From a virus (Duplodnaviria > Heunggongvirae > Uroviricota > Caudoviricetes): DNA of 41,145 nt. The notes under the pieces were generated by a model. The model worked only from the letters and a program-made list of their open reading frames with translations. It did no database searches and had not been told where the DNA came from. A program made the translations under genes and the position numbers. Below are positions 26,585 through 27,635 of this stretch, piece after piece. Location: positions 1-41,145 of the IMG/VR virus record IMGVR_UViG_2531839440_000003. One strand, written 5' to 3'. The first letter of the stretch is position 1. Every line of letters starts with the position of its first letter.

Positions 26585-27074
26585 ACAACCAAAGGAGCTG
26601 GAGTTTAATCGTGCCCGTCTGCGGCGGGCATTTGTGCAGATCGGGCGCGTCTATATGCGCGACGCCAGACGTCTGGTGATTAAACGCGGGCGTTCCGGTC
26701 CGGGAGAGAATCCGGGATATCAGACCGGGCGTCTGGCCCGCTCCATCGGTTATTACGTTCCCAAAAAAACGACGCGTCGCCCCGGACTGATGGTGAAAAT
26801 TTCTCCTAACCAGAAAAACGGGCAGGGGAATCGCCGTTTCCATGAAGGCGCATCCTATTATCCGGCATTTCTGTATTACGGCGTTCGCCATTCAGCGTAT
26901 GGAATGGACAAAAAGGATAAGCGGCAGAAGAAGCACCATTCTTCGACTTTCCGGCTGGCCCCGCGTAATAACTTTATGGCTGACGTTATTGAGCGGCGGC
27001 GTCACTGGACGCAGGAACTGTTGTCCCGTGAACTGCAGCGTTCGTTACGTCCGGTAAAAAGGAAGCATAAATGA
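26550..27074 (+). CDS. Neck / virion morphogenesis protein
   Basis: 174 aa from ATG 26550; positional. Confidence 0.5.
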   Translation: MNQTAFLHVDFKQPKELEFNRARLRRAFVQIGRVYMRDARRLVIKRGRSGPGENPGYQTGRLARSIGYYVPKKTTRRPGLMVKISPNQKNGQGNRRFHEGASYYPAFLYYGVRHSAYGMDKKDKRQKKHHSSTFRLAPRNNFMADVIERRRHWTQELLSRELQRSLRPVKRKHK

Positions 27075-27635
27075 AACTGACAACGATAATTGCGGCGCTG
27101 CGTGAGCGATGCCCGCGTTTTGAGGATCGTGTTGGTGGCGCGGCGCAGTTTAAGGCGATCCCTGATGCCGGAAAACTGCGACTGCCTGCTGCCTATGTGG
27201 TCCCCTCTGACGATGCGCCGGGGGAACAAAAATCACAGACCGATTACTGGCAGGATTTGACAGAAGGCTTCTCCGTTATTGTTGTGCTCAGCAATGAGCG
27301 TGATGAAAAAGGGCAGTGGGCAGCCTATGACGCCGTTCATGATGTCCGGAGAGAACTCTGGAAAGCCCTGCTTGGATGGATGCCGGATCCGCAGGGGGGG
27401 CGAGATTGTTTATGCCGGTGGCACCCTGCTGGATCTGAACCGTTACGAACTGTATTACCAGTTTGATTTTACGGCGAAGTATGAAATCACGGAAGAAGAC
27501 ACGCGACAGTCAGAGGACGTGAATGCCCTGCCGGATTTATCCCTGCTGAGTATTGATGTGGATTACATCGATCCTGGTACTGGCCCGGATGGTGACATTG
27601 AGCACCATCTGGAAATGCGTTTCCCTCAGAAATAA
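27071..27635 (+). pseudogene. Mu gp37-like (DUF1834) neck/tail gene split by +1 frameshift in G7 tract
   Basis: ORFs 27071..27466 and 27279..27635 overlap in different frames; removing one G from GGGGGGG (27394..27400) gives a continuous ~187-aa protein (...MPDPQGGEIVYAGGTLL...). Confidence 0.55.

Follow-up and report, generated by a model that had tools for sequence, protein, structure and literature searches.

A one-base insertion in a guanine run probably inactivates the tail terminator gene of a decaying phiP27-family prophage

The window, by which is meant the whole analysed stretch of 41,145 bp, constitutes a complete prophage of the phiP27/ST64B/SfV family, and its tail terminator gene (27071..27635, + strand), the ortholog of Mu gp37, ST64B sb11 and phiP27 L43, is a pseudogene by virtue of a single inserted base. 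In its intact form the gene comprises 564 bp and encodes 187 amino acids. The additional guanine very probably inactivates the tail terminator, as an ordinary and recent slippage mutation that is inherited within a defective, decaying prophage.

Results

The prophage extends from an integrase gene (1..1020) to the tail fibre genes and combines an HK97-type head with a Mu-type contractile tail. Its late region is ~95% identical to that of the Stx2e phage phiP27, while the nearest prophage, that of E. coli E200139, shares 99.8% identity with it over 21.7 kb. No Shiga toxin genes occur in the prophage window. At the site which harbors stx2e in phiP27, downstream of tRNA genes, three tRNAs (Met-CAT, Arg-TCG and Arg-TCT) are found here (16844..17748), and these are followed by a 141 amino acid ORF (17269..17694), the E200139 counterpart of which is annotated as a TerB-family protein.

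From position 27385 the sequence reads GGATCCGCA-GGGGGGG-CGAGATT, with the seven guanines occupying 27394..27400 (+ strand); no other G or C homopolymer in the window reaches this length. The ancestral tract consists of six guanines (G6) within the codons CAG GGG GGC, which specify Q108, G109 and G110, and the extra guanine (G7) shifts the reading frame after residue 110. The 5′ ORF (27071..27466, + strand; 131 amino acids) encodes native residues 1-110 and a further 21 out-of-frame residues (RDCLCRWHPAGSEPLRTVLPV), and GenBank lists its product under the name 'putative sb11' (EMU72792.1 and others). Native residues 111-187, which include two core β-strands, a helix and a conserved C-terminal segment carrying the motif DxDxI..GPDG.IEHH, are left in the +1 frame as a 3′ remnant (27401..27635, + strand) with no convincing start of its own. 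A second ORF of 118 amino acids (27279..27635), located one base further along, overlaps 27071..27466 across the guanine run. When the tract is read as six guanines, a 187 amino acid protein is obtained that is identical to WP_000779448.1, a 'phage tail terminator protein' of E. coli JNE25-001. The sequence-only reading, which had posited that an extra guanine splits one neck or tail gene with a product of about 187 residues, is thus borne out, the gene in question being that of the tail terminator. Both ORF halves match one protein family, which argues against a fortuitous pairing of two ORFs.

The split gene encodes the tail terminator of a phiP27/ST64B/SfV-type prophage, as is evident from the Pfam family, the fold match and the synteny of its surroundings. 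The repaired protein matches Pfam PF23840 (Phage_tail_terminator; 104.8 bits, cut-off 27) across residues 3-141, while the truncated product scores 87.3 bits and covers only profile positions 8-118 of 150. An AF2 model of the repaired protein (34 homologues; pLDDT 81.6) contains the α/β core of the terminator fold and the extended C-terminus typical of contractile tails. Foldseek ranks the Mu terminator (9khy; E = 1.2e-7) first, ahead of terminators or collars from pyocin R2, Milano, T5 (p142), lambda (gpU) and T4 (gp15). The gene order, in which head-completion genes are followed by the terminator, a DUF2635 gene, the sheath and the tube, is furthermore that of Mu. The upstream neighbour (26511..27074, + strand) encodes a tail completion or Neck1-type protein (phrog_879) and ends with a 4 bp overlap between its stop and the terminator start, while the Mu gp38-like DUF2635 protein (27645..27806, + strand) and the tail sheath (27803..29299, + strand) are encoded downstream.

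Among the relatives the terminator is encoded by one 564 bp CDS of 187 codons, named L43 in phiP27, Sb11 in ST64B and orf9 in SfV, and L43 is 99.5% identical to the repaired protein. Mu gp37 (gene K) shares the PF23840 family, the best structural match and the gene order, but its sequence identity is only about 13%, and this relationship rests on fold, family and synteny. In contrast to gp37-type orthologs, the gene is here broken after codon 110 by the 1 bp insertion. A search of NCBIfam matched no model, while a sequence search of solved structures returned only a chance match, to a farnesyltransferase (E = 0.04). In PHROGs this terminator is placed in phrog_209, 'portal protein', which looks like a mislabel. 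Two half-length PHROGs families, phrog_10113 (residues 1-78) and phrog_5122 (residues 79-186), suggest that some phage records carry the gene split elsewhere, near an A5G3 run. The two families prompted consideration of two naturally separate genes, an explanation that is ruled out by the single frame in 32 phage records, and the PHROGs split point also differs from the position of the guanine run.

The G6 tract was confirmed directly in six loci, namely those of JNE25-001, phiP27, STEC384, UMNF18, 10035776-3 and E200139. Among the 52 E. coli records that match, all except three yield a 564 bp full-length match to the 565 bp query, and this match length implies a G6 tract in most of the other complete E. 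coli genomes. STEC384 and UMNF18, two of the exceptions, contain indels elsewhere in the gene while the tract is still G6, and the third, STEC276, matches over the first 318 bases only, which lie upstream of the run. In STEC384 (gene at 1501..2065 of the retrieved locus) an extra A precedes the stop and neighbouring genes are likewise frameshifted, while in UMNF18 (also 1501..2065) C's are missing from the same gene; the frameshifts in these two genomes look like assembly errors rather than biology. All metagenome contigs with the tract (7/7) are G6. In ST64B and SfV the run is replaced by GGTGCA and CGGTAA, respectively, and the ORF is still single. One continuous reading frame is present in each of the 32 phage records with a homologue (tblastn), and codons 109-110 vary among the 34 homologues (AH, GN, AG, SS and others). 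The single ORF of the relatives and the variable glycine codons indicate that the locus does not normally consist of two genes and that it contains no conserved slippery site. A comparison of run lengths among orthologs had been proposed on the basis of the sequence, with the proviso that orthologs might normally comprise two genes; it returned G6 in close relatives, no run in ST64B or SfV and always one gene, as in 32/32 of the phage records.

Overlapping ORFs that meet at a slippery homopolymer within a tail-gene cluster might also indicate a programmed translational frameshift, with two products being derived from the overlapping ORFs as in tail assembly chaperones. Such an arrangement is extremely improbable here. 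The two-ORF layout is restricted to this lineage, all orthologs, including those of viable phiP27, ST64B, SfV, SfII, SfI and SfIV, encode one uninterrupted protein, and the split falls inside a single folded domain. The RNA near the tract is predicted to fold with z = -2.4, but the helix includes the guanine run rather than being located 5-9 nt downstream, as for frameshift stimulators. A programmed frameshift was rejected on account of the single ORF in all orthologs and the absence of the run from ST64B and SfV.

The G7 allele is a real, inherited insertion, to judge by the assembled sequences, and is unlikely to be a random assembly error. Comparison of the window with JNE25-001 shows 0 mismatches and a single gap, the extra guanine, in 3,564 bp around the gene. 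Likewise, the extra guanine is the only indel relative to E200139 in the shared late-gene region; the other two gaps in this comparison fall where the match frays at its left end (17111-17121), and the IS1 element described below counts separately. Several A/T runs of 7-8 bases within the compared 23 kb agree with E200139, and the window assembly is therefore not generally prone to homopolymer errors. The exact 131 amino acid product is encoded on 23 contigs, including those of GCA_000354535.2, GCA_000354555.2 and GCA_029999815.1 as well as Logan assemblies of SRA runs. The carriers represent one lineage, comprising many separately sequenced isolates (E. coli MP021017.5, MP021017.6 and others), and all five of the retrieved loci are G7 and at least 99.9% identical to the window. 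A literature search on strain MP021017 returned nothing.

One of the carriers, GCA_029999815.1, departs from the window at 27796 into a sequence that resembles an IS66-like terminus, and this junction indicates a distinct genome which has inherited the same allele. The divergence occurs where the DUF2635 gene ends, immediately ahead of the sheath start (3727..3799 of the retrieved locus), and the new sequence begins with GTAAGCGTCAACGG..., resembling the terminus of an IS66-family element. Judging from this terminus, one branch of the lineage would have acquired an IS66-like insertion as its third lesion. Related prophages, those of AST240 and JNE21-003, likewise contain annotated IS66-like elements.

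No assembly error is more common than a miscounted homopolymer, and the sequence-only reading had accordingly allowed for an error in the tract, such that six guanines would be present in truth and the gene would be intact. The error-like frameshifts that the STEC384 and UMNF18 assemblies carry in this gene would fit such an artefact, as would the lack of G7 among complete genomes, since a 47-nt probe seeding only on G7 gave 0 matches in 5,426 complete E. coli genomes. It could also arise if all G7 assemblies share one platform with a systematic homopolymer bias. However, the errors in STEC384 and UMNF18 are located at other positions, both genomes being G6 here, and no other indel distinguishes the window from its nearest relative across the 23 kb of shared late-gene region. 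Moreover, the 23 contigs are derived from separate read sets and assemblies, including Logan re-assemblies of raw reads and a separate accession series with a different IS content, and such recurrence in independent assemblies makes a random sequencing or assembly error unlikely. The sequence-only reading would also have been refuted by reads with six guanines, whereas the independent assemblies of separate read sets show seven throughout. We consider it highly unlikely that the seventh guanine is artefactual, and the suggestion of an error is not upheld. Given that another strain still carries the intact allele on a haplotype that is otherwise the same over 3,564 bp, the insertion is a very recent event.

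A second lesion is observed in the tail-fibre gene, into which an IS1 element of 768 bp (38808..39575, - strand) is inserted, with insA (39245..39520) and insB (38823..39326) encoding IS1 transposase domains. The flanking alignments overlap by 9 bp, corresponding to a 9 bp target duplication. The fibre ORF that IS1 truncates (38531..38812) is present on 24-25 contigs, the sizes of which are distributed almost exactly as those of the G7 contigs. It shares its assemblies with the G7 product, and in one example the two lie on the same contig, AQCP01000144.1. It is also found in one gut metagenome scaffold (ERZ28585971). The two independent tail lesions, G7 and IS1, are fixed in the lineage, so that the prophage is defective and decaying, and it has presumably lost the capacity to form virions. 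Of the readings that had been offered for the split gene, an inactivating mutation in a decaying prophage is consequently favoured: the G7 allele recurs within the lineage, always together with the IS1-disrupted fibre gene, and every other relative has either G6 or no run and a single ORF.

The fibre region is mosaic, and its segment 37038..38520 finds no equivalent in phiP27. At 36468..37427, the Mu gp48-like baseplate gene encodes 319 amino acids, as compared with 196 amino acids in phiP27, and the family match of its product is limited to residues 13-187. The same baseplate ORF is flagged as an incomplete YmfQ-family pseudogene in the E200139 relative. The extended gene suggests a recombination joint or fusion at the point where the mosaic fibre region starts.

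Discussion

Replication slippage is the probable origin of the allele and would have lengthened the tract from G6 to G7 in this lineage, after which translation would leave the native frame beyond residue 110 and stop 21 codons later. In the AF2 model, residues 109-122 and 126-139 form long strands of the core sheet, 146-152 a helix, and 158-163 and 178-183 two C-terminal strands, which are modelled less confidently (pLDDT 66-76). As judged from the model, the truncation would remove two of the four core β-strands as well as the whole conserved C-terminal part. Residues 111-187 include 7 invariant and about 17 nearly invariant positions among the 34 homologues. The lost invariant residues include Y114, G117, L127, Y129 and F133, while D162, D164, I166, G171-P-D-G174, E177 and H178 are lost among the nearly invariant ones. 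The gp37 hexamer of Mu, which docks onto the head adaptor, caps both the tube and the sheath, and its C-terminal β-hairpin joins the last sheath ring in a four-stranded sheet (PMC11915804). By analogy, the C-terminal part that is lost here may correspond to the gp37 hairpin which locks onto the last sheath ring. Loss of half of the core and of this putative sheath-binding arm should therefore abolish the terminator. Tails would then be unterminated and unable to join heads, and no infectious particles would be expected.

Two considerations weigh against a complete and permanent inactivation. A rare spontaneous +1 slip on GGG GGG would recreate the native protein, of which six copies per virion suffice, and the occurrence of G5 alleles in two other samples indicates that the tract changes length repeatedly. 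These G5 tracts were identified in two unrelated Logan samples (SRR18681633 and ERR10434852), where they result in a 121 amino acid product. The contigs concerned represent two haplotypes, which share 99.6% and 97.8% identity with the window, and neither has an indel other than that in the tract. Genuine mutation and read error are both conceivable origins of the G5 alleles. A look-up in the public collection returned neither G8 products nor G7 products on other haplotypes. The guanine run is a weak point and mutational hotspot of the gene, as any G6 run would be.

Variation in both directions, with G7 in a single lineage and G5 on two haplotypes from two samples, could also be taken to indicate a reversible switch, with G6 as the ON state and G5 and G7 as OFF states, or a leaky gene from which slippage of the ribosome or RNA polymerase yields a functional terminator. 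In the latter case, a +1 slip of tRNA-Gly from GGG (27395-27397) to GGG (27396-27398) would, as read from the codons, restore the native Q-G-G-E-I-V, and the RNA surrounding the run is predicted to be slightly more stably folded than shuffled controls. Either possibility is nevertheless improbable. G6 is found in essentially all carriers, including ~50 complete genomes, the seven metagenome contigs and hundreds of members of the 187 amino acid cluster, and the affected lineage is G7 throughout the retrieved sequences, with no mixture seen. The run and its Gly-Gly codons are not conserved in ST64B, SfV and 30 other homologues, and the predicted RNA helix does not lie downstream of the run but incorporates it. 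Moreover, with IS1 in the fibre gene, reversion of the tract alone would not restore the phage.

The phase-variable loci of Neisseria, Haemophilus and Campylobacter similarly contain a guanine run within the coding sequence, where a change in length switches the frame. The run observed here is shorter than the typical runs of known contingency loci. In contrast to those of the three genera, it also has one dominant length, is unconserved in orthologs and shows no mixture within the lineage, and it resides in a prophage structural gene that is accompanied by a second, irreversible lesion. Frequent polymorphism of tract length among strains is expected of a contingency locus, whereas G6 is dominant here; likewise, such a tract would be kept by selection across orthologs, whereas codons 109-110 vary. 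The sequence-only reading had raised a slippage-prone tract giving ON/OFF variation of a virion component. The slippage-prone part of this proposal is retained, as the G5 alleles in two samples fit a mutational hotspot, while the ON/OFF function finds no support, the run being short, unconserved beyond the close phiP27 group and of the G6 length in almost every carrier. It is very unlikely that the G6/G7 run is an exploited slippery site, be it in a silenced but revertible terminator gene or in one made leaky by tRNA-Gly slippage. Were the revertible version true, resuscitation would be possible, in the manner described for ST64B; were the leaky version true, slippage would supply the few terminator hexamers that are needed, and the prophage would be leaky rather than dead at this gene.

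The preferred explanation, an inherited inactivating insertion, has a close precedent within the same phage family. ST64B of Salmonella Typhimurium SL1344/14028s is defective via a frameshift in the tail gene SB21, a defect attributed to Figueroa-Bossi and Bossi 2004 in the two papers that cite it (PMC3853940 and PMC7067206). As presented there, a single tail-gene frameshift is fixed and inherited and blocks the formation of infectious virions. According to the same accounts, however, SB21 is the affected gene in ST64B, while it is the terminator, the ortholog of Sb11, that is disrupted here. They further present the ST64B defect and its reversion as demonstrated by experiment, whereas the loss of function proposed here is deduced from the truncated product. 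The present prophage also differs from ST64B in that IS1 is inserted in its fibre gene.

Conclusions

For annotation purposes, the two overlapping ORFs should be treated as one frameshifted tail-terminator pseudogene, and with two tail lesions the prophage is to be scored as defective. It provides a clean example of early prophage decay, which repeats the case of ST64B within the same family and raises no new biological question.
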